Assembly: GCF_035594765.1 (NCBI RefSeq)
Contig: NC_085842.1
Span: forward strand, 78,344,782 to 78,408,781
From: Anolis carolinensis
Taxonomy: Eukaryota
Direction: 5' to 3'
DNA: 64,000 bases
Each line of letters starts with the position of its first letter. Positions within the stretch are counted from its first letter, which is position 1. Of the stretch, positions 2,395 to 19,941 are shown one piece after another. The position numbers and the translations under genes are program-made. The notes under the pieces are model-generated. The model saw only the letters and a list, made by a program, of their open reading frames with translations, made no database searches and had not been told where the DNA came from.

Positions 2395-2596
2395 TCCACT
2401 CCTAAGTCTTCTAAAGGCAGTATAAAGAAGGAAGGATCAAAAAGAAAAATCAATATGAGTGGTTACATTCTATTTAGTAGTGAGATGAGAGCTGTCATTA
2501 AAGCTCAGCACCCAGATTATTCTTTTGGAGAGCTCAGCAGACTTGTTGGAACAGAGTGGAGAAACCTGGAAACCACCAAGAAAGCGGAGTATGAAG
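2395..2596 (+). CDS. PBRM1: Polybromo-1 HMG-box exon (STPKS...KRKINMSGYILFSSEMRAVIKAQHPDYSFGELSRLVGTEWRNLE...EYE)
   Basis: AG/GT boundaries; HMG-box sequence nearly identical to recalled PBRM1. Confidence 0.97.
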
Positions 2597-2724
2597 GTAA
2601 ACCAAAACTGTAGTTGTGTAAAACCTTTTTTTCTTACAGAAAGATTATGTAAGCCTACATGTGTACTGTTGCTTGAGTAGAAGTTATAAAAGAATAGCTG
2701 AACATGTAAAATCCTTTTTTGCAG

Positions 2725-2889
2725 AGCGGGCAGCTAAGGTGGCCGAGCAGCAGGAGAGAGAACGGGCAGCGCAGCAGCAGCAGCAGAATTCCTCCCCAAG
2801 GGCTGGCACTCCAGTTGGGGCCCTAATGGGGGTGGTGCCACCCCCAACTCCTATGGGGATGCTCAACTCACAATTGACACCTGTTGCAG
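2725..2889 (+). CDS. PBRM1: Polybromo-1 exon (ERAAKVAEQQERERAAQQQQ...LTPVA), 165 nt, symmetric phase 1-1
   Basis: tttgcag acceptor and gtaaaa donor; peptide lies within ORF 2661..3002. Confidence 0.95.
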
Positions 2890-4629
2890 GTAAAACCAGA
2901 GATTCAGACCATTTCCCCCTTTTCATCTACTTTACCAGTTTTTATCATAATTGTTTAGTTGTGTCAGTTTGTTGGCGTCCAAGGGAGGGGAGATTCTATT
3001 GAACCTTACGTCTATACATTTAACTACAAATATCCTGATTTCTGAGCATAGATTTTGTTCTCCACTGGAGATAACATCCTTTAATCATAAGCATTGCAAC
3101 CTTATCCTAAATAAGCTTCTAGTAGCAACTTTATTACCAGCCTATTTGTCCAAAGTTTGTATTGAATTTTATCTGTTTACTGTTTCCTTTGAATGGCTGG
3201 AGAATCATCAAACCTTGAAAAGAGTGATTGTGTACTTGATGAAGTTGACTCTAGTCCACACAAAAATTGTGCCACAATGACATTTTTAGTCTTTCAGATT
3301 ATACAAGATGGTTTGATTTTTCTTATGTGGCAGGTCGACAGAATTATCAGGGTTTGGTATTACGCTGTTGTATTTTTGTGAAATATTAATACTGTAAGAA
3401 ATTGTAATTAAAATCTTCATTTGTAGGTATTTTTATGAATTATATTATGAGCAAAAGTTATTTTAGTTATTAGTTGAATTGATCTAAGACCTAAAATATG
3501 CCACTTGCTGTCCTAAGGGGACTGGTGTTTAAAAGCATCTTTAAATATCATGTTGTGGATCATTTTTGTAACTAACATTTCAAAAAGGAACAATGTGATT
3601 CAGACATGTGCATGTCCAAGGTTGGGTCTTATCCTTTCTATTTCCAGGATATCGTGAAGAAAAAGTTCAGTACTTTTCATTTCCATTTAAATGTGGTTCA
3701 TCACATGGAAGTTGTGAAACTCGAGGCGACATAAATTATGATTTAGGGCACACGAGCTTCAGATTGTTTTACAACTGCCTCTCAAACAAGGAATAAACGT
3801 GATCTTTACAATTTGGTGTGCATTTTTTAATTCCTGAGTCAGATTTAGTATATTTCTACCAACTCTGATTGCACCCAAAATTTTTCACATTCCAAATCTT
3901 TGACGGTGGCTCCATAGCCCTGCTCAAGATTCCTCCAACTCTCCTCAGACACAAAGCCTTCCTTTTTTTCCCAAAAACTCTCCTTTATCCTGCTGTTCCA
4001 GAACTATATCTACTTTATCTTCACCTCAAAATAATGCATGATACTTTAATTTCTCTAATATGTTAAAGTAAGCACCCATTGAAGACAGGGAAGTGTACTG
4101 TGAAAAACACAACTCTCTGGCATTGTTTATTTAACAGCATAATGACTTATTTATAATTCTGAAAAGCTATGTAAGAAATTATAATTGTACACTTCATTTT
4201 CTTTCTTGAACATATTAGTGTCACCCTACATAAAATTAAATATTATGAGTTTTAATGATCTATCATTAATGAGAATTGAGACGGAATAAAGGTTGAATTA
4301 AGTTCCCTTGAATAGATTTAAAAGAAATAATTAAACAAATTGAATGTTGCATTTTAAATATAATATTTTGTGTTGGGCTACAATACTGTTCCACAATTTT
4401 GGGTGTGCATGTTAACAATGTCATATCAGTTCATACGACTGACATAACATTTTGCATTTGCTTGCTGTAATAACGATTGATGCCAAATACTCTGTTTCGT
4501 TCTAAAAAGGTGCCAATAGTTTAAATATTAATTTGATCCAAATGCACTCTTTGGCATTATAACATTGTTCACTTTTTTACAACATACTAATGTGTATGGC
4601 AGTATTTGAAAACACTTATGTTTGAGTAG

Positions 4630-4675
4630 TGCATGTTATTACTATTTGAATAATTTTGCATGTCATTGATGCATG
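4630..4675 (+). promoter_or_regulatory. Cluster of three RBFOX-type TGCATG splicing elements upstream of the 147-nt PBRM1 exon
   Basis: TGCATG at 4630, 4657 and 4670; further copies at 3609, 4035 and 4406. Confidence 0.7.
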
Positions 4676-4700
4676 TTTGAAATTTGTTGTGTTCCTCAAG

Positions 4701-4847
4701 GCATGATGGGTGGGTATCCACCAGTGCTGCCACCTTTACAGGGCCCACTTGATGGCATTATTAGCATGGGTAGCATGCCACCACTTCACCCCGGGGTGCC
4801 TCCACCCCATCAGCTTCCACCAGGCATGTCAGGCATCCCACCACCGG
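4701..4847 (+). CDS. PBRM1: Polybromo-1 proline-rich exon (GMMGGYPPVLPPLQGP...GIPPP), 147 nt, symmetric phase 1-1, likely cassette exon
   Basis: ctcaag acceptor and gtaaga donor; peptide lies within ORF 4673..4948. Confidence 0.95.
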
Positions 4848-4975
4848 GTAAGAAGGACCTCCTCATTCATTCATTATCTTACCTTTCTGCTCTCTTTCTC
4901 CATTTAACCAAATACTGTGGGAAACAATGGCATCTTGTGCATTTGTAGCTTAGTTTCATGATTCATCCTGAATTT

Positions 4976-5152
4976 TTTCTTCGTGTACTCTGTGAATGCA
5001 CACTAATGGAGAACGCTGCGCCTGCGCAGGCTCCAACGGATACTCTTCCAAGCTAAAGTTTGAAATTTGGCGGTAACCCCGCCCCTCTCCCCAGAGGGTA
5101 TAAAGGGCGCCCTCCGCGCCCGCTCTCTGGTTCCTTTTTTTCCGCCGCAAAG
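4976..5152 (+). repeat. DIRS left inverted terminal repeat with promoter-like motifs (NRF1-like TGCGCCTGCGCA 5017-5028, GC box ~5078, TATAAA 5099-5104)
   Basis: Reverse complement of 15928-16100 with few differences. Confidence 0.93.
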
Positions 5153-5175
5153 CTCACTTCGGACTCTTCATTCTT

Positions 5176-6489
5176 ATGTCGACCACGCGTTTTAAGCGGT
5201 GCACTCAGTGTGCCGCTAAGATTCCAGATTCCGACGGTCACGCTAAGTGCCTTTTCTGTCTCGGCGAAAGCCACATCGTGGGTACCTGCTGCTTTTGCCT
5301 GGCCTTTACAGCTCAGGCCCGAAGAAATAGAGCTGCGAGACTCCGCGCAGCTCTTTACGAAAAAACTCTTGCTCCTGAGGCTTCTACTTCCACCTCGGCC
5401 TCGATGGTGTCAAGGCCTGCTCCGTCGGTATCATCCAAAACCTCGAAAACTTCAAGACCAAAACCGGCCAAACCGCCCTGCACGGTGACCACCGCTACGG
5501 TTTCCACCCGGTCGGGCAAAATGGGCCCTTCATCGACTTCGAGTTCGGTGGCTTCGGCCATTTCCACTCGATCCCGCCTGGCTTCGCCGCCATCTTCTTC
5601 CGCCATGAAGATTGCCTTCAAGAGGGCTCAGGAGGAATCCAGACGGGCCCAATCTGACTCAGCAGCTGTGTGCCCGATCCCCCCGACGCCGGGAAAATCG
5701 CTGAGGGTCGCGTCGAAGCAACCTCCAGCAAAGAAACGAATGATCCAGAGGTCGTCCTCCTCAGCGTCTTCGAAGAAGGACGTCCCCTCCTCTGTGGCTT
5801 CCTCTAGGAGATCCTCTCTTATCCAACCAGCACAACGCCTCCGCTCCTCTTCCTCTCCTCATGGTCAGTCCTCAGATGCGGACGCTCAAGCCTCCCCCGA
5901 CCGGTCGGTCAGGACAGTTATTAAGGATCCCCAGCCGACACCATCTCGTCTTCCGGCTCGACAAGAACTTTTTCCCCCGGCTCAAACACCCGAGAGGGGT
6001 AGACAGATGACGCGTTTAGCCCGTGCCGCCCAGGCTTCCGCGTCCAAGGGCGTTCGTCCACAGCCGGCTCCCGCTGCTCCTGAGGTGATACCTCATCAGG
6101 ACTCTGCGCATGTTTCTCCTCCCCGGTCCCCTCAAGGGCCCGAGGAGGATGACCCCGATATCGAACACCCCGAGTCGATCCTCTCCGCCTCCGTTGTCTC
6201 TCTCGTTCTCGACCTCTCCCCGCCTCACGACGCCTACGAGGTCGACCCACCTTCCCCGACGGATAATATCCGGGCTTTCTCCGACCAGATGGTCAGAATG
6301 GCAGATGCTCTGGGGATGGAAATTAAGCAAACCTCAAAAGCTGTTACCGACCCCGTTTTCAAGAGGGTCCAAGCCCAAGCCCCCCCAGCCACCTTGCTGC
6401 CTTTTCTTCCATACCTCCTGGACGTAATCCAGGCATCTTGGAAGACTCCATCTTCGATACATCCAACCTCTAAGAAAATAGAGGCCTGA
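5176..6489 (+). CDS. DIRS ORF1 (gag-like), N-terminal part with Cys/His zinc finger; truncated by the L1 insertion
   Basis: FKRCTQC...DGHAKCLFCLGESH...CCFC motif typical of vertebrate DIRS ORF1; the stop is created at the L1 junction. Confidence 0.88.
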   Translation: MSTTRFKRCTQCAAKIPDSDGHAKCLFCLGESHIVGTCCFCLAFTAQARRNRAARLRAALYEKTLAPEASTSTSASMVSRPAPSVSSKTSKTSRPKPAKPPCTVTTATVSTRSGKMGPSSTSSSVASAISTRSRLASPPSSSAMKIAFKRAQEESRRAQSDSAAVCPIPPTPGKSLRVASKQPPAKKRMIQRSSSSASSKKDVPSSVASSRRSSLIQPAQRLRSSSSPHGQSSDADAQASPDRSVRTVIKDPQPTPSRLPARQELFPPAQTPERGRQMTRLARAAQASASKGVRPQPAPAAPEVIPHQDSAHVSPPRSPQGPEEDDPDIEHPESILSASVVSLVLDLSPPHDAYEVDPPSPTDNIRAFSDQMVRMADALGMEIKQTSKAVTDPVFKRVQAQAPPATLLPFLPYLLDVIQASWKTPSSIHPTSKKIEA

Positions 6490-6580
6490 GCCATATACTG
6501 GCGGAGAGTTTGATTCATAATTACAATATAACAATAAAACAACATAGCAAGGAACAAATAATAGTACGTAAGAGAGGAGT

Positions 6581-7648
6581 ATGGCAACTTTCAAGGGAAA
6601 GCTGGATAAAGATTGGAAAGAGCTGAAAACAGGTCAAAGAAGGAACTCGATCCCGGCCCCGGATGAAGTAAACTTGAAAGATCTTTTGAGAGAGATCCAA
6701 CGGGTCTCGGAGAAACAAGACCTGCTACAGAAGGACATTCAAGCCATTGCCAGTAAACAAGACTTGCAACAAAAATTATTTCAAGAAGAACTGACTGAGT
6801 TAAAAAAAGAGCTGAGAGAGGAGATGTACACAATCAAAAGTGAGGTGCAAAAAAACTCAAAGGACATTCTTGAACTGAGAGATGAGAAAGTAAAAGAGGA
6901 AAGAACACGAAGTAAACTACAAAGGAGAGTAGAAGGGATTGAAGCTAAGAATAGTAAATTAGAAAAATTACAGGAAAAGATGGAATTAAACGAAACGGAA
7001 TTCCAACTGAGATTTAGGAATGTCCAGGAAGAGGCTAAGGAGAATATCAGAAGCACCATAATTAGTCTAGTAGCAAAAGCTATGAACAGCAGCGAACAGG
7101 AAACCAGTGCTCAGATTGATAGAGCATATAGAATAAACACGAACTATGCAAAAAAAAATAAAGTGGCTAGGGATGTAATTGTCCATTTCGCAAGAAAAAA
7201 CTATAGAGACGAATTACTGAGGAATAATAAAAGCAATCCAATTATCCACAAAGACCGAAGAGTTGCGGTATTAAAAGAGTTTCCACTATCTATATTAAAC
7301 AGACGTAGGAACTACTTCTTTCTTACGGACGAATTAAAGAGACTGCAAATAAAATTCCGGTGGGAGAAATACGAGGGGATTATGGTGACCTACAATGGTG
7401 AAAAAAATTGGATTACTTCTGAAGAGAAGGCAGACGAGTTTTACCGAAAATTGAAGAAAGATTTATCCCAAAAGAAACAACTGGAATCGGCAGAAAAGGA
7501 AAAAAATCCCAAGGACACAAAAAAAAGAAGATTCGACTCTCCCAAAGAAGCTGAGGAGCTATTGATCCAGTTTTCAAAGGACAAAGAGACTGAGGACTTA
7601 TCGGATAGCGTGGAGGAAGTAGAAGAGGAGATAGCGGCAAATGAATGA
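6581..7648 (+). CDS. L1 ORF1p (coiled coil, RRM and CTD; 355 aa)
   Basis: Heptad-rich N-terminus; LRFRNVQEE, IDRAYRI and RDVIVHF motifs of L1 ORF1. Confidence 0.93.
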   Translation: MATFKGKLDKDWKELKTGQRRNSIPAPDEVNLKDLLREIQRVSEKQDLLQKDIQAIASKQDLQQKLFQEELTELKKELREEMYTIKSEVQKNSKDILELRDEKVKEERTRSKLQRRVEGIEAKNSKLEKLQEKMELNETEFQLRFRNVQEEAKENIRSTIISLVAKAMNSSEQETSAQIDRAYRINTNYAKKNKVARDVIVHFARKNYRDELLRNNKSNPIIHKDRRVAVLKEFPLSILNRRRNYFFLTDELKRLQIKFRWEKYEGIMVTYNGEKNWITSEEKADEFYRKLKKDLSQKKQLESAEKEKNPKDTKKRRFDSPKEAEELLIQFSKDKETEDLSDSVEEVEEEIAANE

Positions 7649-10600
7649 TTTTAACCAATCAATAAAGGTTTTCTCAAACAACATCAACGGTCTGAATGCG
7701 CCCACAAAGAGAAAAAGGGTATATAATTATCTAAAAAAGAATAACTTTGATGTAATTGCTTTACAAGAAGTGCACATCAAACAAAGCCAGGCCAAATATT
7801 TGTTTAATGACAACCTGGGAAAGTTATACCACTCTCTAGACCGGGAGAAGAAGAAAAAAGGAGTGGCCCTGTATATTAACAATAAATTAAATCCATCTTT
7901 AGAATTTAAAGATAATGAGGGTAGAATAGTAGCAGCGAAAATTGAATCAAATTCAGAAACAATTTTAATTTGTAATATTTATGCACCTAACGGGCCAAAA
8001 AGAAAGTTTGTCAAAAATTTAAGAAACCATATTAGGGAGAGTGATTTTAATCACATTATTATAATGGGGGACTTCAATGGTATATTGGAAAAAAACAGAG
8101 ATAAAAAAGCACATAAAAAGACCATAACAAACAACATGTTACCACAGAATTTTATAGATCTAAAGAATGAATATGACCTCCACGATTCGTGGAGATTGAG
8201 AAACCCCACCCAATTAGATTATACATTCTATTCAAGTCGTCACAACTCGTGGTCAAGAATCGACATGATTTGGGTGTCTAAATTGTTAACCACTAAAATA
8301 AATAAGGTAGAAATTATGGCTAGAGATTTATCTGATCACGGTGCTATGTTAATGGAAATCAATAAGAAAAAAATAAATTTGAAATGGAGATTAGACGATA
8401 ATTTAATTAAAAGAGAAGAGGACATCGTTAAAATTAGGCAAATGACGAAAGAATATTTTAAATTTAATAATATTCAAGAGTCTGACCCACTAATTATATG
8501 GGACGCATACAAGGCAGTGGCCAGAGGGTTCTTTATTCAGCAAAAGAAGTTGAAAACGAGAACGAAAAAGGAGAATTTAAAAAGATTACAAATTCAAATA
8601 GAGCAAAAGGAAAAAGCACTTAAAGCGAATCCGGGTAACAATAAAATAAACCAGCAGTTGACCATTTTTAGGAACCAGAAAAAAAACCTCGAATTAGATA
8701 ACTTAGCAAACCAGATAAAGTGGGCAAAGCAATATTCATTTGAAAACGCTAACAAGCCTGGAAAGTGGCTTGCTAGATTATTAAGGAAGAAAAGGTATAG
8801 TCAACAAGTACTAAAAATTAATTCGCAAGGGAGAACAGTGTATACTGATGAGGAAATAAAGGAAGAATTTAAAAAGTATTATGAGCAACTGTACGAAAAG
8901 GAAGGGATCAGCCAGGAGGAAATAGTAAAATATTTATGCAAGCAAAAATTGCAAAAGATAACAGATGAGCAACGATTAGACTTAAATAAAGCAATAACAC
9001 CCGAAGAAGTGAAAGAAGCGATAAAAGAAACAGAAGCAAACAAAGCGCCCGGATTAGACGGGTTTATAGCTGGGTTTTACAAAATTGAACAGGAGGAGGT
9101 TATTGCACATTTGGTGCAAATAATGAATTTGGTCTTAACAGAAAGTATTATCCCAAAAACGTGGAGTGAAGCGGAGATAATAATGATCCATAAGGAAGGG
9201 AAAGATCAAAGTGATGTTAAAAATTATCGACCAATAGCGCTGCTAAATACGGATTACAAACTCTTTACAAAAATTATGGCAAAAAGATTATCAAAATTTT
9301 TAAACAATTGGATCGCAGACGACCAGTCAGGCTTCTTACCAAACCGCAGCACAAAAGATAACATCAGGATAATAATTGACGCAATTGAATATTACGAGTA
9401 TAATCACCAAAAGACAGTAGGCTTTCTCGCACTAGATGCTGAGAAAGCTTTTGACCAGTTGAATTGGGATTTCATAAAATTGCTATTACGAGAATTAGAT
9501 ATGGGGGCACAGTTTCAAAATACTATAAATGCTATATATACCCAGCAAGGAGCTATCATTAGAGTAAACGGTCAGACGTCGGGAAAATTCAATATTAATA
9601 GAGGAGCTAGACAGGGCTGTCCACTCTCGCCGTTGATTTTCATAATGACCCTAGAAATTTTATTGCGTTCCATAAGGGAAGATAGCAAGTTAGTAGGAAT
9701 TAAAGTAGATAGTCAGGAAATAAAAGCCAGAGCATTCGCGGATGATGTAATCTGCATAATAGAAAACCCTAGGGATAATACAAGAATTTGGCTAAATAAA
9801 ATTGAAGAATTTGGAAAATTGGCAGGGTTCAAAATTAATAAAGACAAATCAGTAATGTTGACAAAGAATCTGACATCACAGGACTTGGAAATAATAAAGA
9901 AAGAAACGGGACTCCAATTTGCAAACAAAATTAAATATTTAGGCATCTGGATTGCGTCAAAAAATAATCGCTTGCTGGAACTTAATTACGTGAGGAAATG
10001 GAAAGAAATAAAAAAAGATCTGGAGGAATGGAAAAATTTAAAAATATCTCTGTTAGGCAGAATAGCGACAGTAAAAATGTCAGTCCTTCCAAAGATGCTG
10101 TACTTATTCAGGAACATTCCCATAATAAGGAACAATCAAATATTCAACAATTGGAATAAAGACATAAGAAAATTTGTGTGGAACAATAAAAGACCCAGGA
10201 TCAAGCTCTCGACGATGCTAACTCCCAAAGAAAGAGGGGGACTTGATTTGCCAGACCTCAAATTATACCACGAGGCCTGTGCTTTAGATTGGATTAGAGA
10301 TTGGGCGAACTTAAAAAAAGCGAAAATTTTATCATTAGAAGGCTATAATTTAAGAAGGGGCTGGCATGGGTATTTATGGTATGGTAAACATAAAATTGAA
10401 AGGAATTTTGGTAATCATTTTGTGAGATCGGCGCTACTAAAAACTTGGACTAAGTATAAAAGATTTTTCTATGAAAAGACTCCGCTGTGGCTCTCGCCGT
10501 TAGAAGCATATCAGAGACGAGAATTAGGGTGGATATCCTGGCCAACGTATAAGGAGGTGTTAAACTGGTCAAACAGGAATGGATTACCAGAGATAAAGAA

Positions 10601-11393
10601 GTTAGAAGAAATTCAAATCAAATATAAGAATATATCATGGCTACATTATTACCAATTAAGAGATTGTTTTAGGGCTGATAAAAAACAAGGTTTTAGTCCA
10701 TCTGATGAGTTTTGGGATATTATTTTACAAAGAGAGAAAAAGGTATTAACTAATTTATACAATAAATTAGTGGAGTGGAACACGGAAAAGGAAGTAATAA
10801 AGGAATCAATGCTAAAATGGTCAAGAGATATAAACAGGCCAATTCTACTAAATGAATGGGAGGCGATTTGGAATAAGAAAATCAAATACTGCCGGGCCAC
10901 TGACCTCAAGGAAAACTGGATTAAAATCATTCATAGGTGGTACCTGACACCTAAAAAAATTGCCTTAATGTATAACAATATTGATAACAAATGTTGGAGG
11001 TGTAAAGAGCAGGTGGGGTCTTACTTCCACATGTGGTGGAGCTGTAAAAAAGTTAAAAAGTTCTGGTCTATAATTAACGTGGAAAGTAGGAAAATTCTGA
11101 AAATAAATTTGGAATGCAAACCTGAATACTATTTATTAGGGCTATACAATATCTTCGAAAATGAGAATAAAGTAGAAGCGAAAAACAAGGAGAATTTAGA
11201 TAAAATTTATACTTATTTAATAACGGCTGCGAGACTGGTAATTGCCAAAGATTGGAAGAATGCAGAAACCCCTACGAGAGAGATGTGGCTAAACAAAGTC
11301 ATGGATATTAAGAACATGGACAAGTTAACTTTTTTGATTGAAACGGACTGGACACTATTTGAAGACTATGTAGAAGAAGAGCTAAGAAGATGA
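7641..11393 (+). CDS. L1 ORF2p (APE endonuclease, reverse transcriptase, CCHC domain; 1250 aa)
   Basis: NINGLN, LQEVH, NIYAPN, GDFN and SDH (EN); YRPIALLN, DAEKAFD, QGCPLSP and FADD (RT); CWRC...HMWWSC. Confidence 0.96.
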   Translation: MNDFNQSIKVFSNNINGLNAPTKRKRVYNYLKKNNFDVIALQEVHIKQSQAKYLFNDNLGKLYHSLDREKKKKGVALYINNKLNPSLEFKDNEGRIVAAKIESNSETILICNIYAPNGPKRKFVKNLRNHIRESDFNHIIIMGDFNGILEKNRDKKAHKKTITNNMLPQNFIDLKNEYDLHDSWRLRNPTQLDYTFYSSRHNSWSRIDMIWVSKLLTTKINKVEIMARDLSDHGAMLMEINKKKINLKWRLDDNLIKREEDIVKIRQMTKEYFKFNNIQESDPLIIWDAYKAVARGFFIQQKKLKTRTKKENLKRLQIQIEQKEKALKANPGNNKINQQLTIFRNQKKNLELDNLANQIKWAKQYSFENANKPGKWLARLLRKKRYSQQVLKINSQGRTVYTDEEIKEEFKKYYEQLYEKEGISQEEIVKYLCKQKLQKITDEQRLDLNKAITPEEVKEAIKETEANKAPGLDGFIAGFYKIEQEEVIAHLVQIMNLVLTESIIPKTWSEAEIIMIHKEGKDQSDVKNYRPIALLNTDYKLFTKIMAKRLSKFLNNWIADDQSGFLPNRSTKDNIRIIIDAIEYYEYNHQKTVGFLALDAEKAFDQLNWDFIKLLLRELDMGAQFQNTINAIYTQQGAIIRVNGQTSGKFNINRGARQGCPLSPLIFIMTLEILLRSIREDSKLVGIKVDSQEIKARAFADDVICIIENPRDNTRIWLNKIEEFGKLAGFKINKDKSVMLTKNLTSQDLEIIKKETGLQFANKIKYLGIWIASKNNRLLELNYVRKWKEIKKDLEEWKNLKISLLGRIATVKMSVLPKMLYLFRNIPIIRNNQIFNNWNKDIRKFVWNNKRPRIKLSTMLTPKERGGLDLPDLKLYHEACALDWIRDWANLKKAKILSLEGYNLRRGWHGYLWYGKHKIERNFGNHFVRSALLKTWTKYKRFFYEKTPLWLSPLEAYQRRELGWISWPTYKEVLNWSNRNGLPEIKKLEEIQIKYKNISWLHYYQLRDCFRADKKQGFSPSDEFWDIILQREKKVLTNLYNKLVEWNTEKEVIKESMLKWSRDINRPILLNEWEAIWNKKIKYCRATDLKENWIKIIHRWYLTPKKIALMYNNIDNKCWRCKEQVGSYFHMWWSCKKVKKFWSIINVESRKILKINLECKPEYYLLGLYNIFENENKVEAKNKENLDKIYTYLITAARLVIAKDWKNAETPTREMWLNKVMDIKNMDKLTFLIETDWTLFEDYVEEELRR

Positions 11394-11659
11394 ATTAAAC
11401 AGGAAGACTAACAGAAGATAGTAGAGCGGAGGTCCATCCCCCTCCCCTTCCCCACCCCACTCTAAGGGCCCTTTACCTATTATTTTCCCTTTCCCTCCCC
11501 ACAGGTCTGGTCTCCCCACGCACTACCCACCCCTTCCCCTCCCCTCCCTTAATTCCCTGTCCCATAACCTACCTCTCCACCCACCTTTTCCCTTAGACGA
11601 TAAGTGTTATCTGGAAATTCTTTAATAAAGATCATTTAAAAAAAGAAAATAGAGGCCTG

Positions 11660-12404
11660 GTACCGAACCGATGACGAAGCCTTGGAATGGCTCAAGCATC
11701 ACCCTGACCCAAACTCCATGGTGGTAAAGGCCTCCCAATCGTCGGGTCGACAGTCCAACTCCCCTGCCGACAGGGAAGGTAAACGATTCGATGCGGTAGG
11801 CCGCAAGCTGTACTCCGGCGTTCTCCTCCTTTGCCGTATGGCGAACTACGGGGCCTGCATGGGCGCTTATCAACAGATCCTCAGGGGAAAAGCCCAACCT
11901 TTCTTCGCCAAACTTTCTGACGAAGACCGGTCAGTCCTTTCGACCCTCCAACAGGAGGCGGACTCCCTCGCACACCACCAAATTCAAATGGCTAAACATA
12001 CCGGTGATACCGCCGGAAAAATGATTGCCCACGCAGTCGCGATCAGACGGCATGCATGGCTTCGGTCCTCAGGACTCTCTTCTTCCTCTCAACAAGTGAT
12101 CGAAGACCTTCCTTTCGACACCCAGGGCCTTTTCAATTCTGGTACTGATGACAAACTGAAGTCCAATCACGACTTCAAGATTCTCGCAACAAAGTGCGGG
12201 ACCGATCAACCTCAGACTCAGCGGACCCGATGGTTCCCGCAACGGTACCGTCGCTACCCTCAGCCTTTTCGTCACCAGCCGTTTCGACGCTCGTCGAGCT
12301 CGAGTCACCACAGTCATCAGCAACAACCTCGCCGCCAGCACCAGGTTCCGAAAGGTCGGGGCAAGGGTGCTGCAGCTATGCCACAACCCCAACGACGGGC
12401 CTGA
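11660..12404 (+). CDS. DIRS ORF1 (gag-like, LAP2alpha-related domain), C-terminal part
   Basis: Removing the L1 and one TSD copy gives ...SKKIEAWYRTDDEALEWLKHHP... in frame (685 aa in total); RRHAWLRSS and DLPFD motifs. Confidence 0.88.
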
Positions 12405-13948
12405 CGCCCACTCTCTCTCTTTTCTACCTTCACTGCTACTGCCACTGCCATGCCGTTCCTAGGCCCCGACCAGATCCTTCCTCTCTGCTCTTTCCTCGAT
12501 CGCCTAGCTCCTTTCTACCGCGAATGGGAGTCTATAACCTCAGATGCCTGGGTTCTTCGCATTGTCAGAGACGGCTATGCCTTGGAATTCGAAACTTTGC
12601 CCCCCACGGGTCACATCCTCCACACCGACCCTTCACCGGAAATATGCTCCGAGGTCGACTCCCTTCTGGCGAAGGGCGCAATCCAGCCTTCTCCTTCCGA
12701 GCAGGACACTCAAGGTTTCTTCTCGAGATACTTTACGGTTCCCAAACGGGGCGGAGTTCTTCGGCCTATCCTCGACCTGCGAGCCCTAAACCTCTTCATT
12801 CTGCCTTCAAAATTTCGAATGGTCTCGGTGGCCTCCATTCTCCCGATGCTCCGACACGGAGACTACTTTGCCTCTATAGACTTACGCGATGCGTATTTCC
12901 ACGTCTCGGTGCGTCGATCCCACAGACGCTTCCTTTCCTTCAAGCTCCTGGGACAGTCTTACCAGTTCACAGTTCTCCCTTTCAGCCTCGTCACGGCCCC
13001 AAGGGTCTTTACGAAGGTGGTCGCCGTGGTGGCAGCGCACCTCAGAAAACAGGGCATAATGGTCTTTCCTTATCTGGACGATTGGATGATTGTCGCGTCC
13101 GACCCCTCATCCCTTCAAAACCACGTCTCTCAAGCTCTTTCTCTTCTACAACGGCTGGGCCTTCAGTTGAATGTCTCAAAGTCCCAACTCCTCCCGACCA
13201 CAGAGATCCGCTTCATCGGAGCTCTCTTCAACTCCATCGCGGAAACCGCCTCCCTACCGAAGGACAGGTTCCTAGCCCTTCAACAACACCTTTCTCTCCT
13301 CCTCCGCAACCGCAGGATCCGAGCCCACTCTGTCCAAGTTCTTCTGGGTCACATGGCCTCCACGGTCATGGTTACTCCTTTCGCCAGACTACATCTCAGA
13401 CCTCTCCAAAGATGGTTTATAGACTCTTTCAAACCCCATCGGCATCCGAGCTCAATGTTTCTCACGGTACCGAACCAGGTTCGCCTCTCCCTTCGTTGGT
13501 GGCAGGACCCAGCGAACGTTTGTGTGGGACTTCCCTTCCATCCCTCCCTCCCGTCAGTCACCATCACGACCGACGCCTCCAATTTTGCGTGGGGAGCCCA
13601 CATGTCAAACCTCACCGTCAGGGACCTTTGGTCCATCCAAGAGAAGTCTCACCACATAAACTTTCTAGAACTGTTATCAATCTTCAAAGCCCTCCGGGCG
13701 TTTGCTCGCTTTCTTCCCCACAAGACTGTTCTGATACAAACGGACAATGTAGTAGCTATGTACTACATCAACAAACAAGGGGGTACGGGCTCGAGAAAAC
13801 TGATGACTCTCTCGATGGACATTTGGCTATGGTGCATAGCGAGACACATAACCCTGTCGGCGGTTCACCTTCCGGGGGCTCAAAACACGCTAGCAGACTC
13901 TCTAAGCAGAATAACAACCTCCCCCCACGAGTGGCGTCTCGATCCTGA
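12194..13948 (+). CDS. DIRS overlapping alternative-frame ORF, inferred N-terminal extension of the YR ORF (first ATG at 12230)
   Basis: 584 stop-free codons in the -1 frame over RT; same frame relation as YR to the methylase domain after the frameshift. Confidence 0.65.
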   Translation: MRDRSTSDSADPMVPATVPSLPSAFSSPAVSTLVELESPQSSATTSPPAPGSERSGQGCCSYATTPTTGLTPTLSLFYLHCYCHCHAVPRPRPDPSSLLFPRSPSSFLPRMGVYNLRCLGSSHCQRRLCLGIRNFAPHGSHPPHRPFTGNMLRGRLPSGEGRNPAFSFRAGHSRFLLEILYGSQTGRSSSAYPRPASPKPLHSAFKISNGLGGLHSPDAPTRRLLCLYRLTRCVFPRLGASIPQTLPFLQAPGTVLPVHSSPFQPRHGPKGLYEGGRRGGSAPQKTGHNGLSLSGRLDDCRVRPLIPSKPRLSSSFSSTTAGPSVECLKVPTPPDHRDPLHRSSLQLHRGNRLPTEGQVPSPSTTPFSPPPQPQDPSPLCPSSSGSHGLHGHGYSFRQTTSQTSPKMVYRLFQTPSASELNVSHGTEPGSPLPSLVAGPSERLCGTSLPSLPPVSHHHDRRLQFCVGSPHVKPHRQGPLVHPREVSPHKLSRTVINLQSPPGVCSLSSPQDCSDTNGQCSSYVLHQQTRGYGLEKTDDSLDGHLAMVHSETHNPVGGSPSGGSKHASRLSKQNNNLPPRVASRS

Positions 13949-15368
13949 AATCCGTCTTCGACGATTGGGGCTGGCCAGCTCTGGACCTTTTTGCCTCCCC
14001 CTCGAACGCTCAACTTCCTCGCTTCGGAGCAAGACTACCTCCAAACTCGACTCCGGGCTGTCTCGGAGACGCGTTTCTCCTCGACTGGACCCTCGAGCCC
14101 GTCTATCTTTTTCCTCCCTTCCCTCTCATCTCGAGGGTAATAGAGAGAGACTATCTAACGCCAACATCGACCATCCTGATCGCCCCTGCATGGCCACGCC
14201 AGCCGTGGTACCCAACTCTACTCCGGATGTGTGCGGATCCTCCCCGCACTCTCCCAACTCTCCCTCATCTACTATCTTCACAGAAGGGACAGGTCCTCCA
14301 CCCCGACATCCCGTCCCTACACCTGACTGCCTGGAGGATACTTCCTTAAATTCTCTCCACCCAGACCTGCAGGCGATCCTTCGTGCCGCCCATAAGCCAG
14401 CCACGTCAAGGGCCTATGCTTACAAGCTTGCAAAATTCCAAACTTTCCTTCGGGACCGACACGTCGATCCCGCCTCTACTTCGATCCCGCTGGTCCTGGA
14501 CTTCCTACTTTCTCTTGCAGATCGTCAACTCTCTCTGGCCTCGATAAAATCCTATCTCGCTGCTCTCTCCTGGCATTTCCAACGTCAGAGACAACCCTCT
14601 CTCTTTTCTAACAACCTCATTAAGACCTTTCTTCGAGGTTACAACAACCTGCACCCTCCAGTTCAACCTCCGACTCCCGGATGGAGCCTCGAACTCGTCC
14701 TTTCTCAACTAGCTTCAGCTCCCTTTGAACCTATGGCCTCTGCAGACCTTCACCTTCTCTCTTGGAAGACTGCCTTCCTAATCACTATCACCTCTGCGTG
14801 CAGGTCTTCGGAACTGGCTGCTCTTCGGGTGGACGAACCCTACCTCCGTTTCCACCACGACAGGGCTGTTCTTCGCCCGGACATCACCTTCCTACCTAAG
14901 GTGGTCTCTGCTTTTCACCTTAACCAGGACATAATACTTCCTGCTTTCTTTCCTAATCCTTCTTCTTCTTTGGAGCGGAGACTTCATCTCCTGGATGTCA
15001 GGAGAGCCCTCCTTTTCTACAAAGACAGGACTAAGGACATACGTAAGTCACCTAGACTGTTTGTGGCTTACGCTACCCATAAGCTGGGCGAACCACTTTC
15101 TTCTCAAAGACTCTCACACTGGATTGCTCAGACTATCGAACTCGCTTACCAGCTGGCTAAACGCCAACCCCCCTCTTCGATCCGCCCTAGATCAACGAGG
15201 GGCCTTTCCACCTCTACTGCCTTCCTGAGGGGCGTCCCTCTCGACTCCATCTGTCGAGCGGCTATCTGGTCCACTCCATCCACCTTTGTTTCACACTACA
15301 GGATGGACTCAAAGAACCTCAAGGACTCGGCCTTTGCCAGGTCTATCCTTTCCTCCTGCCTTGCCTAA
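12450..15368 (+). CDS. DIRS RT-RNaseH read in frame into the tyrosine recombinase (972 aa; fusion caused by a frameshift near 13945)
   Basis: RPILDLR, SIDLRDAYFH, LPFSL and YLDD (RT); TDAS/ELL/QTDN/ADSLSR (RNaseH); RSSEL, FLPKV, RSTR, W and HY (YR). Confidence 0.9.
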   Translation: MPFLGPDQILPLCSFLDRLAPFYREWESITSDAWVLRIVRDGYALEFETLPPTGHILHTDPSPEICSEVDSLLAKGAIQPSPSEQDTQGFFSRYFTVPKRGGVLRPILDLRALNLFILPSKFRMVSVASILPMLRHGDYFASIDLRDAYFHVSVRRSHRRFLSFKLLGQSYQFTVLPFSLVTAPRVFTKVVAVVAAHLRKQGIMVFPYLDDWMIVASDPSSLQNHVSQALSLLQRLGLQLNVSKSQLLPTTEIRFIGALFNSIAETASLPKDRFLALQQHLSLLLRNRRIRAHSVQVLLGHMASTVMVTPFARLHLRPLQRWFIDSFKPHRHPSSMFLTVPNQVRLSLRWWQDPANVCVGLPFHPSLPSVTITTDASNFAWGAHMSNLTVRDLWSIQEKSHHINFLELLSIFKALRAFARFLPHKTVLIQTDNVVAMYYINKQGGTGSRKLMTLSMDIWLWCIARHITLSAVHLPGAQNTLADSLSRITTSPHEWRLDPEIRLRRLGLASSGPFCLPLERSTSSLRSKTTSKLDSGLSRRRVSPRLDPRARLSFSSLPSHLEGNRERLSNANIDHPDRPCMATPAVVPNSTPDVCGSSPHSPNSPSSTIFTEGTGPPPRHPVPTPDCLEDTSLNSLHPDLQAILRAAHKPATSRAYAYKLAKFQTFLRDRHVDPASTSIPLVLDFLLSLADRQLSLASIKSYLAALSWHFQRQRQPSLFSNNLIKTFLRGYNNLHPPVQPPTPGWSLELVLSQLASAPFEPMASADLHLLSWKTAFLITITSACRSSELAALRVDEPYLRFHHDRAVLRPDITFLPKVVSAFHLNQDIILPAFFPNPSSSLERRLHLLDVRRALLFYKDRTKDIRKSPRLFVAYATHKLGEPLSSQRLSHWIAQTIELAYQLAKRQPPSSIRPRSTRGLSTSTAFLRGVPLDSICRAAIWSTPSTFVSHYRMDSKNLKDSAFARSILSSCLA
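13945..14349 (+). pseudogene. DIRS DNA N6-adenine methylase-like domain, out of frame with RT
   Basis: Manual translation: LKSVFDDWGWPALDLFASPSNAQLPRF...DAFLLDW...YLFPPFPLISRV...ILIAPAWPRQPWYP...LHPDIPSLHLTAWRILP*. Confidence 0.85.
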
Positions 15369-15784
15369 CGTTGTTGCCTTACTCAAAACCAGTTTTTTTT
15401 GGTTATCCTTCTTACAAGCTGACCGCTGTCATTCAGCCTTTATGTACACGATATGTTCATGGGTTCATTAACGTAGTGCTTGTGTACTATACTTACCCAC
15501 TACACTGAAATGTATTTCATGAATACCTCTACCTCTGTTTTCAGGAAATGGGTCTATACTTACCTCTGTATTTTCTTACAGACTATCGCTCACATACAAT
15601 GTTGTGATTGTGTTCTGGGTCCTAATAACAAGGATCGGTTTTTTTGCACTATATGCTGTTGCATCGTTTTCTTTGACTGTTGCACTTGCTTGTTTTTGCA
15701 CCTTGTGCTCAATAAATGTGTTGTTTGGACACTAGACTGGTTATCGGGTTTGCTATCCCACCTACCTACACCTCAGCTTGCTAG

Positions 15785-15879
15785 TCTCCATTAGTGTGCA
15801 TTCACAGAGTACACGAAGAAAAAGGACAGGTTGCTTATCTGTAACCGTGTTTCTTCGAGTGTACTCTGTGAATTCACAC
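15785..15879 (+). repeat. DIRS internal complementary region (ICR)
   Basis: 15785-15823 is complementary to the 5' end (4974-5012); 15824-15879 is complementary to the 3' end (16071-16126) with one mismatch. Confidence 0.93.
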
Positions 15880-15927
15880 AATCCCGCCCTTCCTTCCCCA
15901 CATGCAAACCTCTCCCTTTCTCGCTGC

Positions 15928-16130
15928 CTTTGCGGCGTAGGAACTGGAGAGCGGACGCGGAGGGCGCCCTTTATACCCTCTGGGGAGAGGAGCGGGGTTA
16001 CCGCCAAATTTCAAACTTTAGCTTGGAAGAGTATCCGTTGGAGCCTGCGCAGGCGCAGCGTTCTCCATTAGTGTGAATTCACAGAGTACACTCGAAGAAA
16101 CACGGTTACAGGTAAGCAACCTGTCCGTTT
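15928..16130 (-). repeat. DIRS right inverted terminal repeat plus ~30-nt 3' extension ending in TTT
   Basis: Inverted copy of the left ITR; extension 16101-16130 matches the right half of the ICR. Confidence 0.93.
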
Positions 16131-16523
16131 CTGGGGTGGATCACTATATTAATACACAGAGTGCACCGAGAAATATATTGAGTGTATTTACCAAGCACAC
16201 TGGCATATTAAATATGTTGGCAAATCAACCTCATGTGCTTAATCCAGAAGCAAACTAGTTGAACAATAAAACAAGATAATGTATTTTTAAAAATATTTCA
16301 TTAAAATTGACTTAATTTTTCCAATGACGTGGAATATTGAAGGCAAATGTAGAAAGTCATATTCTTTGAAACTGGATGCAAAAATAACTCAATCCTGCAT
16401 TCAAGTAGAGTTCAATATAACATAAGTCAAACACAATTATCAAGTCATATGTAGAAGCACCTTTACTACCTTTATTTCGTTTATTTCCAACAAATCGTAG
16501 GACTTTCAGATGGCACAGAAACA

Positions 16524-16591
16524 GTCCTGTGTGTTCTTAAGGTTTCAAGGTCCTGTGTGTTCTTAAGGTTTCAGTCCTGTGTGTTCTTAAG
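16524..16591 (+). repeat. Tandem triplication of a ~24-26-bp unit GTCCTGTGTGTTCTTAAGGTTTCA
   Basis: Copies start at 16524, 16550 and 16574 (third is partial). Confidence 0.9.
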
Positions 16592-16633
16592 CTTGGAATA
16601 ACACTTCAGTTTTCTGTACATTTTGAAACACAG

Positions 16634-16701
16634 GTGTTATGGGTCAGAATGTTTCCTCGATGGTGGGAGCCTCAGCATCAGGAAATCCATTTGGACAGCA
16701 A
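16634..16701 (+). CDS. PBRM1: Polybromo-1 short exon (GVMGQNVSSMVGASASGNPFGQQ)
   Basis: cacag acceptor and gtaagt donor; aligns to recalled GVMNQGVAPMVGTPAPGGSPYGQQ; phases fit neighbouring exons. Confidence 0.9.
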
Positions 16702-17667
16702 GTAAGTGAATGAGGAAATCCTATATTTTTTTTTAAGTTTTCCTTTTTGGATAACTTTTACTTCAGTGATAATGGTGGGTGCATTTTATTTCCCTGATTT
16801 TGAATTTATCTAGCCTGGGATTGAATAGTTGCAGTTCAGGTATATACAAACTGCATCAACAGAAGTTTGCATGGCCATCTTTCAGCAATGCTTTAGTTGT
16901 GTATTCCTGCATGGAAAGGGGATGAAATTGCCAATATCAAATGGATTCCTAGATGCCAGAAGAGTTTAGCAACATAATAAGGAAGCTAGGGATGAGGGAA
17001 GGATTAGCAATTTTCTTTAAAAAAAAATCTTTCTCATTGTACATTTCTAGCATTGGTCCCTGCCTCCCTGTATCCAGAAAATCCATGGGACCTGTGGAAA
17101 ATTCATTATAACAAAATTCCAGATTCTGTAAAAAAAATGATCAAACCTCACTCTCCATATGTGAAAACCATTCAGTTATACAGTTTTCAAATAAGTAGTT
17201 GTGTTAGTCTGTTGCAGTAAGAATAATTCGGGGGAAAATAATCTAGCAGCACCTTTAAGATTAAGATTGATTATATAATATATTGATTTATATTTTAGCC
17301 AGGGCTTTTCTGATACTATAGTTGTATCTCCTCAAAGTTGTTGTCTATTTCTGATCATCTCTATCTACTAAAACTAGTGCTAAAATAGAAACCAATATTA
17401 AAGGTGCTGCTATAATCCGTTTTTTCTTCTCCGTTTCTTTCCCCCTTTTTGTTTAATCAGATGGCAATAAGACATATGGGCTTTTTGAAATAAATCTCAG
17501 AGTAACTTACTTAGATACAAACACTGGGTTATCTTGGTATAGGATTTGAAATACTTGGGGGCATTGGTTTTTTCAGCTGCCCATTGCTGAATGTGATCTT
17601 GAAATTTTCAAACTATTTTAACCTAGATTGTCATATGTGTTCTTTGTGTTGCTTGTTATTTTTCCAG

Positions 17668-17884
17668 ATGGGTATCCTTGGTCCATCTGGGCAGCAGGCA
17701 CCACCCCCCTATCCTGGTCAAAATCCAGGAAACCAACAGGTCATGCAACAGCCTACAACTCCCATGTTTGTCTCTCCTCCACCAAAGACCCAGAGACTTC
17801 TTCACTCAGAGGCTTATTTGAAATACATTGAGGGTCTTAGTGCTGATTCAAGTAGCATTAGTAAGTGGGACCAGACCCTTTCAG
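17668..17884 (+). CDS. PBRM1: Polybromo-1 penultimate coding exon (MGILGPSGQQAPPPYP...RLLHSEAYLKYIEGL...WDQTLS)
   Basis: ttccag/gtaaga boundaries; conserved C-terminal motif. Confidence 0.96.
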
Positions 17885-19768
17885 GTAAGAACATTTGGAT
17901 TATACACAAACTCTAAAAAAAATTTTAAGAGACTCTTTCATTCCATTATGGCTGTGCTATACAAAAAAATTCTCAGTTGCTGTTTCACAATTATATCCTC
18001 ATAGACCTGGGCAGGAAAATGATCTGGGAATACAGCAGGAATAAATTACAATTTCTGGTACAATTGGTCATAGGATGTTTAATAATGAAGACTACATTAT
18101 TTTTAAATCAAATGGCCTTGTTTGATTTTAAAATAAGTTATTTGTTATATCTTTTATCTGTTATATAACAAATGTAAACTGAAAACAACAGTAAATCCCA
18201 TATTAGATGTAGACTAGTTTAGAATTTGACCAAAATCCAATTGCAAGTCTCAGCTATAGTAAATTTCTTGACTCACATTGTTGAATGGTTAATCAGTAGT
18301 CACGTAACTCCTGTTGCTTCAGAGAGTGTAGTTGAGACTTGCAGTTGGGCTTTATCTTAATACACCAGTACAAAATTGTGCCTGTAGTAGTTCGGGTTCT
18401 TACAATATGCTCCCATTTCAAACATGATGTAGAACTGAATTGTACGTAGTCTTTTAGCATTGACTCTTATCACTAGCTGTTTCAATAGATAAAAAGAATT
18501 TCTATAAATTTCTTTTATCTGTCGAAACAGGCCTGATTCCTCATTTCTATCCCTGAGATTAAGAGACTGAGAGTCCTTCCTACTCCTACTTGTCAATTAG
18601 TTTCTAGATTCCGTCTGGGATCATGTTTATGAACTTCTGGGCCACCTTAGCGCCCAACCAGACAGGCTGAGTTAACATCAGCATTCCACTAAAGAATACT
18701 GATGTACTGGATTCTTAGGACATTTATATGGGAAATTGGGAGACTCTTTAGTGATATTTCAGGCTAGAAATGCACCCCTATGCTCAGTGGACATTTTGGA
18801 ACATTCCAGGGCAAAAAGAAAGTTTTGGGGAAACCATTTCAAACATTGTTTTTGACTCATGGAAGGCTCAGGGGACCTCCAAACATAGTAGAAACACCCT
18901 CTACACACACCAGAATGGTTTTGTAAGCATTCTAAAGGGAAATAAACTGTTTGGCAAAAATTGATATTTTTTTACCTAGAGGCCACCACACTCTGGCCTT
19001 CCTGATCTATAATTTTTTTTAAAGTTGGTAAGTTTATGTGTACTCTATATTTTTGCTACCAAATATTTCTTAACTTTACATGTGGTGTTGAGCAGCACTG
19101 TCCCATTTTTATAGTTATGGGAATGAAGCATTAAAAAAAGACCTCTCCCACTAAGTAGAGAACAGGGAGGCCTAGTGATTTTTACTATTTCCTCCTGCAT
19201 TCTATTATGTAATTCAGAACTCTATTATGGTGGGTTAAGAAGCCATGCAGGGCAGATGAAGGCTGGTGAACATTTCTCTTTCAGCAATATTGGAAACAGT
19301 AAAAAAAAAAAACCAACAACATAAGGGCTGAGAGCTGTAGCCCCTAGGAATCCTGCAACTCTCCCTGCCCTTATCCCCTTAATGATTCCTTTGTTGAGTT
19401 GTGTTACTGGGCCTCAGGATTGCCTCTGAAATGTGGACTTGTGGCTGTGCTGATGTGTGGGTTCATTACTATTGTACACATGGCCTACCTCCAATTTAGG
19501 ACTTAGCAAACAGCCAGAGTTGGGTTTTAAACAACAATTATGGGATTATTGAACACAAAAGTAAAATATATTAAATTCTAATAATCTATTCTTTAGGCTT
19601 TCCAATACCATAGGTAGTTCTTGGTTCTTTCTTAAATCCAAACTTTTATCAGTTCAACATCCATCTTGTGTCAGCTTTTTAAATTGCTGCATTTATATTC
19701 CCAGTGATTGTATAAATAAGTAATTTAAGCAAAGGAGTCCTATGACTGCACAACCTTTATTCTTTCAG

Positions 19769-19941
19769 CACGAAGACGTGATGTCCACCTCTCGAAAGAA
19801 CAAGAGAGCCGCCTACCTACACACTGGTTGAAAAGCAAAGGGGCCCATACCACAATGGCAGATGCACTGTGGCGCCTTCGAGACTTGATGTTGAGAGATA
19901 CGCTCAATATTCGTCAGGCATACAACATAGAAAATGTTTAA
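19769..19941 (+). CDS. PBRM1: Polybromo-1 last coding exon (ARRRDVHLSKEQESRLPTHWL...RQAYNIENV*)
   Basis: tttcag acceptor; TAA at 19939-19941; matches recalled PBRM1 C-terminus. Confidence 0.96.

Follow-up and report, generated by a model that had tools for sequence, protein, structure and literature searches.

A 5'-truncated L1 nested in a damaged DIRS element within intron 27 of the Anolis carolinensis PBRM1 gene

Intron 27 of PBRM1 in Anolis carolinensis contains a DIRS element whose gag gene is split by a seemingly younger, 5'-truncated L1. The analysis covered 64,000 nucleotides of genomic DNA (the window; positions are counted from its first letter). The DIRS, which is of the AcDIRS2 type, and the L1 are both damaged and likely immobile on their own. 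We consider it probable that the block is a tolerated passenger, spliced out with the intron, whose effect on the choice of exon 27 is modest at most. A preliminary description had proposed the nesting of L1 in DIRS in a PBRM1 intron, all on the plus strand, and this architecture was borne out by a 17-bp target-site duplication (TSD), the split gag and the open L1 reading frames. The host gene comprises the following features:

2725..2889, plus strand: PBRM1 exon 26 orthologue, 165 nt, with splice joints in RNA run X17
4630..4675, plus strand: three TGCATG (RBFOX-type) motifs at 4630, 4657 and 4670, directly 5' of the exon-27 acceptor
4701..4847, plus strand: PBRM1 cassette exon 27 orthologue, 147 nt, frame-neutral
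4848..16633, plus strand: host intron 27, 11,786 bp, GT/AG ends
16634..16701, plus strand: PBRM1 exon 28 orthologue, from RNA run X17 and sequence
17668..17884, plus strand: penultimate coding exon of PBRM1, from RNA run X17 and sequence
19769..19941, plus strand: last coding exon of PBRM1 up to the stop codon, from RNA run X17 and sequence

The arrangement resembles human PBRM1, in which exon 27 is an RBFOX2-repressed cassette (PMC11574163). Exon order is the same, exon 26 measures 165 nt as in human (PMC13096959; PMC11574163), and the three motifs upstream of the anole exon (P ~1.5e-5 for three TGCATG in 100 nt) match three conserved UGCAUG upstream of human exon 27 (PMC11574163). An isoform lacking exon 27 was likewise found as a joint 2889 -> 16634 in X17, the sole RNA run examined. 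The anole exon differs from its human counterpart in length (147 versus 156 nt) and in the 11-kb insertion that starts 125 nt 3' of its donor (PMC11574163). The intron size given in the preliminary description was reproduced, with 628-631 bp left once both elements are removed.

The L1 and its target site were delimited as follows:

6472..6488, plus strand: 5' copy of the TSD, 17 bp, by exact repeat comparison
6489..11642, plus strand: L1 of lizard clade 1, 5'-truncated in the UTR with 92 nt left
6581..7648, plus strand: L1 ORF1, 355 aa (1,068 nt), open, with an 8-nt overlap with ORF2
7641..11393, plus strand: L1 ORF2, 1250 aa, open, with endonuclease and RT domains
11643..11659, plus strand: 3' copy of the TSD, by exact repeat comparison

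The perfect TSD reported earlier is indeed an exact direct repeat, the only one of at least 8 bp between the two L1 junction windows, and its chance occurrence over 5,200 positions is ~5e-7. The L1 target consensus is TT/AAAA; the target CT/AAGAAAA differs from it at two positions and was rightly called L1-endonuclease-like. At the 5' junction the last 4 nt of the TSD copy also match the L1's own upstream UTR, and contig records 2 (run X1) and 26 (run X7) accordingly align to the window from 6485. The nesting might be an assembly chimera of two repeats, given that no L1-DIRS junction contig occurs among the 32 of ~6,300 pieces listed and that an N gap lies elsewhere in the window. A mis-join would not yield an exact 17-bp TSD, an endonuclease-like site, a poly(A) end and 5' microhomology, and both DIRS-host junctions occur in independent runs; a chimera is therefore extremely unlikely. 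Target-specific insertion of a Tx1-like kind into DIRS found no support, and in record 29 of X7 the 3' end of a close L1 continues into other sequence.

The element has the features of the L1 clade, namely an ORF1, an ORF2 with APE endonuclease and RT, overlapping ORFs, a poly(A) signal, an A tail and the TSD. Its overlapping ORFs and 249-nt 3'UTR placed it in lizard clade 1, and the ORF1 length fits this clade, although ORF1 matched no Pfam family at E<=0.001. Like the published clade-1 elements (PMC5381506) it has a 1,068-nt ORF1, overlapping ORFs and a C-rich 3'UTR with AATAAA (at 11624) and a short A tail. The nearest protein to ORF2, UniRef100_A0A803TVZ8 from A. carolinensis, is 97.1% identical over 1,165 aa. 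Open reading frame analysis confirmed that ORF1 and ORF2 are uninterrupted, as first described, yet the label of an intact L1 did not hold. Unlike clade-1 elements, whose 5'UTRs measure 792-1,465 nt, this copy retains 92 nt and has a gap near the ORF2 C-terminus (PMC5381506). The conserved 5' motif of the clade was not found within the 64-kb window, and other copies extend further, so the copy is not full-length; contigs in two runs carry 101 more nt of L1 5'UTR beyond 6485 among the pieces listed. ORF2 is not collinear with its relatives: an in-frame gap at 11339/11340 removes 9 residues that are present in 11 of 11 aligned Anolis C-termini and in the two members of the same cluster that reach this point. 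Among the 24 of 334 loose ends listed, X7 has one at 11340.

The surrounding DIRS parts are listed below:

4973..5135, plus strand: left terminus and inverted terminal repeat (ITR), inverted repeat with 15939-16091
5176..6489, plus strand: N-terminal part of gag, 437 codons, ended by a TGA created at the L1 junction
11660..12404, plus strand: C-terminal part of gag, resembling the LAP2alpha-matching region of salamander DIRS proteins
12450..14349, plus strand: pol (RT, RNase H, methyltransferase) from domain matches, frameshifted near 13945
14340..15368, plus strand: tyrosine recombinase (YR) core, open, with RSTR motif
15711..15716, plus strand: AATAAA followed by a GU-rich stretch, the sole AATAAA in the DIRS parts
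15785..15879, plus strand: internal complementary region (ICR), left ICR 15785-15823 and right ICR 15820-15879
15939..16130, plus strand: right ITR and right extension, with a sense donor-like site at 16112

Excision of the L1 brings the gag halves back into one frame, and the 685 aa claimed for the restored protein follow by arithmetic. Both halves are collinear in three homologues (P0025 163-241/238-410, P0017 56-131/128-324 and P0037 193-257/253-448). Neither half matched a Pfam family directly in the profile search, PF11560 included; the C-terminal part shares 34.5% identity (E 7e-20) with residues 448-614 of P0046, a protein whose residues 411-609 match PF11560 (LAP2alpha domain).

The termini have a DIRS1-like geometry. 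The ITR arms of 153 nt are 97% complementary, the left ICR is complementary to 4974-5012 at 39 of 39 positions and the right ICR to the right end at 58 of 60, so that both termini are matched and the two parts overlap at the junction. The left end lies within a T run and starts at 4973 or 4974. TTT stands at both ends as read from the filled site alone, and there is no longer TSD; DIRS1-like elements end in an NTT trinucleotide and likewise have none (PMC3266345). The gene set is also DIRS1-like, with gag, RT, RNase H, an out-of-frame methyltransferase and the tyrosine recombinase. Judged by published motifs and geometry, as distinct from base-level alignment, the element is of the AcDIRS2 type (Anolis carolinensis, PMC3266345 Table 3, Additional File 3): all seven listed motifs are present, its length without the L1 is 5,986-5,987 bp compared with 5,997 bp, and it shares the TTT start, an ICR of 39+60 nt and a long overlapping alternative frame (here 12230-13948). 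In both elements the left ICR starts 345 nt, the right ICR ends 251 nt and the right ITR starts 191 nt from the 3' end. It differs in its TTT end (TGT in AcDIRS2), the split gag and the frameshifted pol (PMC3266345). One contig of run X2 joins a DIRS right end to a left end, as expected of a circular intermediate, but may represent a tandem copy or an ICR variant.

The element had been called complete, which holds in outline but not for pol. The spacer between RNase H and methyltransferase measures 31 nt, compared with 13 codons in 38 of 38 pattern-fitting homologues (120 examined), so that RT-RNase H runs into the YR frame and leaves the methyltransferase, whose frame is matched by 86 of 120 homologues, out of frame. 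The resulting 972-aa ORF might be a natural RT-RH-YR fusion, as 20 of 120 hits match RT and YR without methyltransferase. This reading was set aside in favour of a lesion because a fused query selects for such proteins and because the out-of-frame methyltransferase is well conserved here. With an L1 within gag and a frameshift near 13945, the DIRS does not appear autonomous.

The block may thus have arisen in three steps. Tyrosine recombinase would first have integrated a DIRS circle into a TTT site lying 125 nt 3' of the exon-27 donor. The frameshift in pol would have followed, and the element would have risen to high frequency, or become fixed, among the animals sampled. Finally, an L1 RNA would have been inserted by target-primed reverse transcription at an A-rich site in gag; copying probably stopped in the 5'UTR, and the end was joined at the 4-nt microhomology, leaving the TSD.

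Of the earlier proposal that both insertions are recent, the order of events and the youth of the L1 stood: besides its perfect TSD, RNA contigs differ from the window's L1 by only 4 in 1,698 nt and 3 in 711 nt. The DIRS, however, looks older than the L1, with 2 mismatches in 115 nt of the conserved ITR and 2 in 60 nt between right ICR and right end. Its presumed polymorphism found no support in three DNA-like runs (X1, X2 and X7) from three studies, one of which may be the window's own source. These runs have 97-99% of words in common with the window, more distant animals (0.94-0.96) being left out, and X2, although labelled 'RNA?', was taken as DNA for its flat depth over introns without splice joints. 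Unique contigs of both flanks run into the DIRS in all three, with unbroken cover at single-locus depth (2300-4999 and 16101-19594 in X1, 2300-5000 and 16100-20300 in X2, 4638-5000 and 16100-20300 in X7). No empty-site joint occurs among the 14 joints listed. Under a 31-letter bridging rule the right junction is spanned in X2 and X7 alone (by 31 letters, or 28 if the last TTT belongs to the host), the left junctions having 27-28 letters and the right junction of X1 30. The animals would thus appear homozygous for the DIRS, although contig graphs drop rare variants. Fixed DIRS copies are frequent in the green anole, with 315-393 fixed and 930-1,796 polymorphic in each population (PMC7561263 Table 1); PBRM1 was not found in 12 of the 15 supplementary files of that study.

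Several hints that the L1 is absent from the sampled animals were set aside. X2 has no cover at 11464, the two records that align from 6485 pass into other 5'UTR sequence, and window alleles such as 9550 were unseen in all four runs; contig cleaning explains these equally well, and the DIRS alleles 5927 and 5938 were likewise unseen though the DIRS is present. An L1-free gag joint (6471 -> 11643 in X17, with loose ends in X1, X2 and X7) was also rejected as a DIRS-only allele of this locus, because any other DIRS copy gives it. The contig comparison behind these observations comprised 40 of 270 difference rows, besides the loose ends and pieces mentioned above.

Splicing across the block was observed in X17, a run judged to be RNA from its four GT..AG joints, including that from exon 26 to exon 28, which has just 30 letters on its short side. 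A contig of 4,334 nt extends across the last two exons and on into the 3'UTR. In these introns X17 carries another haplotype than the window, with loose ends at 4331 and 17034, and the insertion may be missing from it. Contig depth in X17 (210 upstream, 187.6 downstream) was rejected as evidence because it cannot rank parts of a gene.

The AATAAA signals at 11624 and 15711, proposed as causes of premature polyadenylation, are present with three coding exons downstream but are not special. On the sense strand the L1 holds 24 AATAAA, the native part of intron 27 one and four other PBRM1 introns nine; lizard L1 ORFs contain on average 25.0 AATAAA and ATTAAA (PMC5381506). Nonetheless, the allele with the L1 could be a recent polymorphism of low frequency, reducing PBRM1 output through premature polyadenylation or poor elongation. 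The L1 is young, sense-oriented and rich in AATAAA, its junctions with the DIRS are missing from the pieces listed, and purifying selection acts against long L1s in anoles. PMC9099904 describes such insertions as truncating host transcripts and sense-oriented A-rich L1s as depleted from mammalian introns. This depletion, together with the low frequency of full-length anole L1s (PMC3787681), implies that the L1-bearing allele may well be deleterious. Against a loss of output, the AATAAA number is normal for a lizard L1, other PBRM1 introns hold the signal too, splicing of exon 26 directly to exon 28 eliminates the block, and no transcript ending inside it was seen in the contigs of one RNA run. 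We regard this explanation as unlikely and favour the tolerated passenger.

The nesting is probably of an ordinary kind, and the regulated exon beside the block might be influenced by it. Both element families are already described in the green anole, where damaged, nested and fixed copies are expected, and the locus most likely matters little. Our search, which most subscription papers lay outside, found no report of this locus or of a transposable element in an Anolis PBRM1 intron. The locus could show whether an 11-kb insertion 125 nt past a conserved RBFOX-regulated exon alters exon inclusion. Should the DIRS be fixed and the L1 still segregating, it would also allow one to measure what a 5-kb sense L1 does to a conserved chromatin gene.

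A promoter in the DIRS left ITR might drive an RNA that comprises gag (437 aa), ORF1 and ORF2 and extends to the poly(A) site of the L1. The promoterless L1 would then still be expressed and could be mobilised with a 5' leader from the DIRS. The shared orientation, a TATA-like box near 5098, the two open L1 ORFs and the abundance of DIRS-like RNA contigs in X17 are consistent with such a rescue. Translation of ORF1, however, would probably have to restart behind an upstream ORF of 437 codons, ORF2 lacks its 9 C-terminal residues, and gag is represented in X17 by an L1-free contig, which any other copy could supply; this explanation is highly improbable.

A further explanation concerns the gag leader:

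5129..5152, plus strand: pyrimidine tract and AG, candidate acceptor, 23 nt before the gag ATG

Alternative last exons of TMPO and ZNF451 derive from DIRS gag, and the element was inferred to have supplied both the splice acceptor and the poly(A) signal (PMC4495291). Exon 26 or 27 of PBRM1 might similarly be joined at 5152/5153 to gag as an alternative last exon. A DIRS-only allele would then encode PBRM1 with the full gag and end at the 15711 signal, and the L1 allele would stop at 6489. The candidate acceptor is in frame and stop-free for the phase-1 donors of the host, has 16 pyrimidines in 20 and no competing AG within 40 nt. As in TMPO (LAP2alpha) and ZNF451, the gene of a nuclear protein contains a sense DIRS gag, here preceded by a candidate in-frame acceptor and followed by a poly(A) signal (PMC4495291); the gag C-terminal part is related to LAP2alpha-matching proteins and the DIRS is common to the three runs. 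Yet an equally good acceptor arose in 1,123 of 20,000 shuffled leaders (5.6%), no joint into 5153 is listed in X17, the one RNA run, which may lack the insertion, and the L1 interrupts gag early in the LAP2alpha-like region. Among 7,999 scored proteins of 766-2,185 aa, the gag N-half matched one, which was not PBRM1, a weak argument against the fusion. The TMPO and ZNF451 exons are moreover ancient, expressed and under purifying selection, whereas the present gag is young and L1-split (PMC4495291). Incipient exonisation is thus quite improbable, and there is very little chance of a LAP2alpha-style domestication in progress, with a DIRS common to green anoles, a tissue-dependent PBRM1-gag isoform and a segregating L1 that truncates it. 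Use of the gag acceptor, if it occurs, would make the locus a test of whether DIRS elements carry an acceptor and poly(A) signal with them, as proposed in PMC4495291.

The 3' end of PBRM1 lies within the window on the + strand, and the intron downstream of its exon 27 carries two retroelements, one inside the other:

4848-16633, + strand: PBRM1 host intron, 11,786 bp
4973-16130, + strand: DIRS, GC-rich element inside the PBRM1 intron
6489-11642, + strand: L1, A-rich element inside the DIRS

The nesting is genuine: the two elements belong to known anole families, and each of them is defective. All lengths given in the preliminary description were borne out on recomputation. The DIRS has inverted termini of 153 nt, and each of its ends is complementary to an internal region. 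An exact repeat of 17 bp stands on either side of the L1 (6472-6488 and 11643-11659; chance about 5e-7). The DIRS gag pieces to the left and right of the L1 share one reading frame and align collinearly with three homologues; the L1 was therefore inserted after the DIRS.

Comparison with AcDIRS2, the published DIRS1-like retrotransposon of Anolis carolinensis, revealed agreement in 7 of 7 motifs and equal terminal distances of 345, 251 and 191 nt (excerpts of PMC3266345 and its Additional File 3). In the ORF 12450-15368, reverse transcriptase (RT) and RNase H continue into the recombinase frame. The methyltransferase, which matches 86 of 120 homologues, lies in a different frame and is preceded by a spacer of 31 nt, the spacer being 13 codons long in all 38 pattern-matching homologues among the 120 examined. 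With pol frameshifted, the methyltransferase out of the RT/RNase H frame and gag split by the L1, the element is not intact; it had been described as complete.

The L1 ORF2 shared 97.1% identity over 1,165 aa with a protein labelled Anolis carolinensis; together with the AcDIRS2 match, this makes the green anole the likely host. By sequence features, namely overlapping ORFs, an ORF1 of 1,068 nt and a C-rich 3'UTR of 249 nt, the element fits lizard clade 1 as characterized in an excerpt of PMC5381506, which gives clade-1 5'UTRs of 792-1,465 nt. This copy retains 92 nt of 5'UTR, and the clade-1 5' motif, when looked for, was absent. Upstream of the L1 start, contigs in two runs extend 101 nt further, their alignment beginning at 6485 and thus overlapping the TSD by 4 nt; such microhomology is commonly seen where L1 copies are 5'-truncated. 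ORF2, although open, is nine residues short at 11339/11340 in comparison to all 11 aligned Anolis C-termini and to both same-cluster members reaching this position, and a loose end at 11340 in the DNA-like run X7 agrees with the gap. The description of the L1 as intact was therefore abandoned on account of the truncated 5'UTR, the missing motif and the shortened ORF2.

Of 24 sequencing runs listed, four were examined as contigs for polymorphism: X1, X2 and X7, which behave as DNA and stem from three studies, and the RNA run X17. All three DNA-like runs are near the window (97-99% of words common), X1 being a possible source of it. In each of them, flank contigs of single-locus depth pass unbroken into both DIRS ends, and no empty-site joint occurs among the 14 joints listed. 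Read plainly, the contigs, which lose rare variants, make each of the three animals a DIRS homozygote; only the right junction in X2 and X7 is long enough for a 31-letter junction rule. Fixed DIRS copies are common in the green anole (315-393 per population; excerpt of PMC7561263). The outer element is likely common or fixed, and the suggestion that it is probably polymorphic is not supported. No L1 junction contig was present among the contigs listed. A low frequency of the L1 is plausible in the light of published anole data (excerpts of PMC3787681 and PMC5389967). Mismatch counts agree with an older DIRS (2 in 115 nt of the conserved ITR, 2 in 60 nt of the ICR match) and a younger L1 (4 differences in 1,698 nt and 3 in 711 nt to RNA contigs).

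The exon at 4701-4847 is the orthologue of the human PBRM1 cassette exon 27. The preceding exon has 165 nt, equal to the human one (excerpts of PMC13096959 and PMC11574163), and the 71 nt next to the exon-27 acceptor contain three TGCATG motifs (P ~1.5e-5), in agreement with the three conserved RBFOX2 sites that the excerpt of PMC11574163 describes for human PBRM1. In zebrafish pbrm1l, too, an exon of this region is regulated, according to an excerpt of bioRxiv 10.1101/2024.11.01.621494. In X17, a joint from 2889 to 16634 skips exon 27 and the entire block, and the transcript runs on through the last exons; it corresponds to the isoform without exon 27 that is already known. The block is most likely removed by splicing. 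As the X17 allele may or may not carry the insertion, its splicing is no proof that the insertion is harmless. X17 also has long loose ends at 4331 (214 nt) and 17034 (at least 255 nt), which suggest more insertion or haplotype differences between animals in PBRM1 introns.

Premature polyadenylation of PBRM1 at the block is possible (excerpt of PMC9099904). The two AATAAA signals put forward for it are present but hardly distinctive: the one in the L1 is one of 24 there, the other is the only one in the DIRS, and other PBRM1 introns contain nine. Lizard L1 ORFs carry about 25 such signals on average (excerpt of PMC5381506).

Another conceivable consequence is exonisation of DIRS gag. The alternative last exons of mammalian TMPO and ZNF451 derive from DIRS gag (PMC4495291), and related cases from L1 ORF1 are known (excerpt of PMC12129022). 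In its C-terminal part, the gag is similar to the region of salamander DIRS proteins that matches LAP2alpha. An AG at 5151-5152, 23 nt before the gag ATG and following a tract with 16 pyrimidines in 20, is a candidate acceptor, stop-free and in frame for host phase-1 donors; 1,123 of 20,000 shuffled leaders contained an equally good site. No joint into 5153 is listed in X17, and a PBRM1-gag protein was not found (one match, not PBRM1, among 7,999 proteins scored). We consider a LAP2alpha-like exonisation into PBRM1 through this acceptor very improbable. The right extension of the DIRS holds a strong donor-like site at 16109-16118 (+), some 520 nt upstream of exon 28; the ICR counterpart of this site diverges from it at the donor position. 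Through this candidate donor, RNA started in the DIRS could be spliced to the last three exons of PBRM1; X17 lists no joint from it.

One X2 contig (depth 24.9) connects the right end of the DIRS (16124) with its left end (4973); it stems from a circle junction, from a head-to-tail copy or from an ICR variant of a different locus. X17 is rich in DIRS-like RNA contigs (window 5001-6500 and 11660-16130), including an L1-free gag contig, and also contains a diverged DIRS subfamily (24 differences in 715 nt) and contigs 99.6-99.8% like the L1. DIRS gag/pol sequence occurs in the squamate gene models P0001, P0014, P0037, P0042 and P0143, among whose labels are MED19, SLC15A2, TRPV6, WASH subunit 2 and CLCA-like; either annotation read-through or true exonisation accounts for it.

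Elsewhere in the window, an intronless ORF at 29797-30552 (+; 251 aa stop to stop) encodes PA28_N and PA28_C domains, and its exact protein had no identical entry in the protein collection. It is likely a PSME3-type retrocopy and lies between PBRM1 and an NT5DC2-like gene. A 227-nt direct repeat (53969-54195 and 55336-55562; 97.8% identity) enclosing a stop-free stretch of 182 codons (54848-55393) is possibly a small LTR-type remnant.
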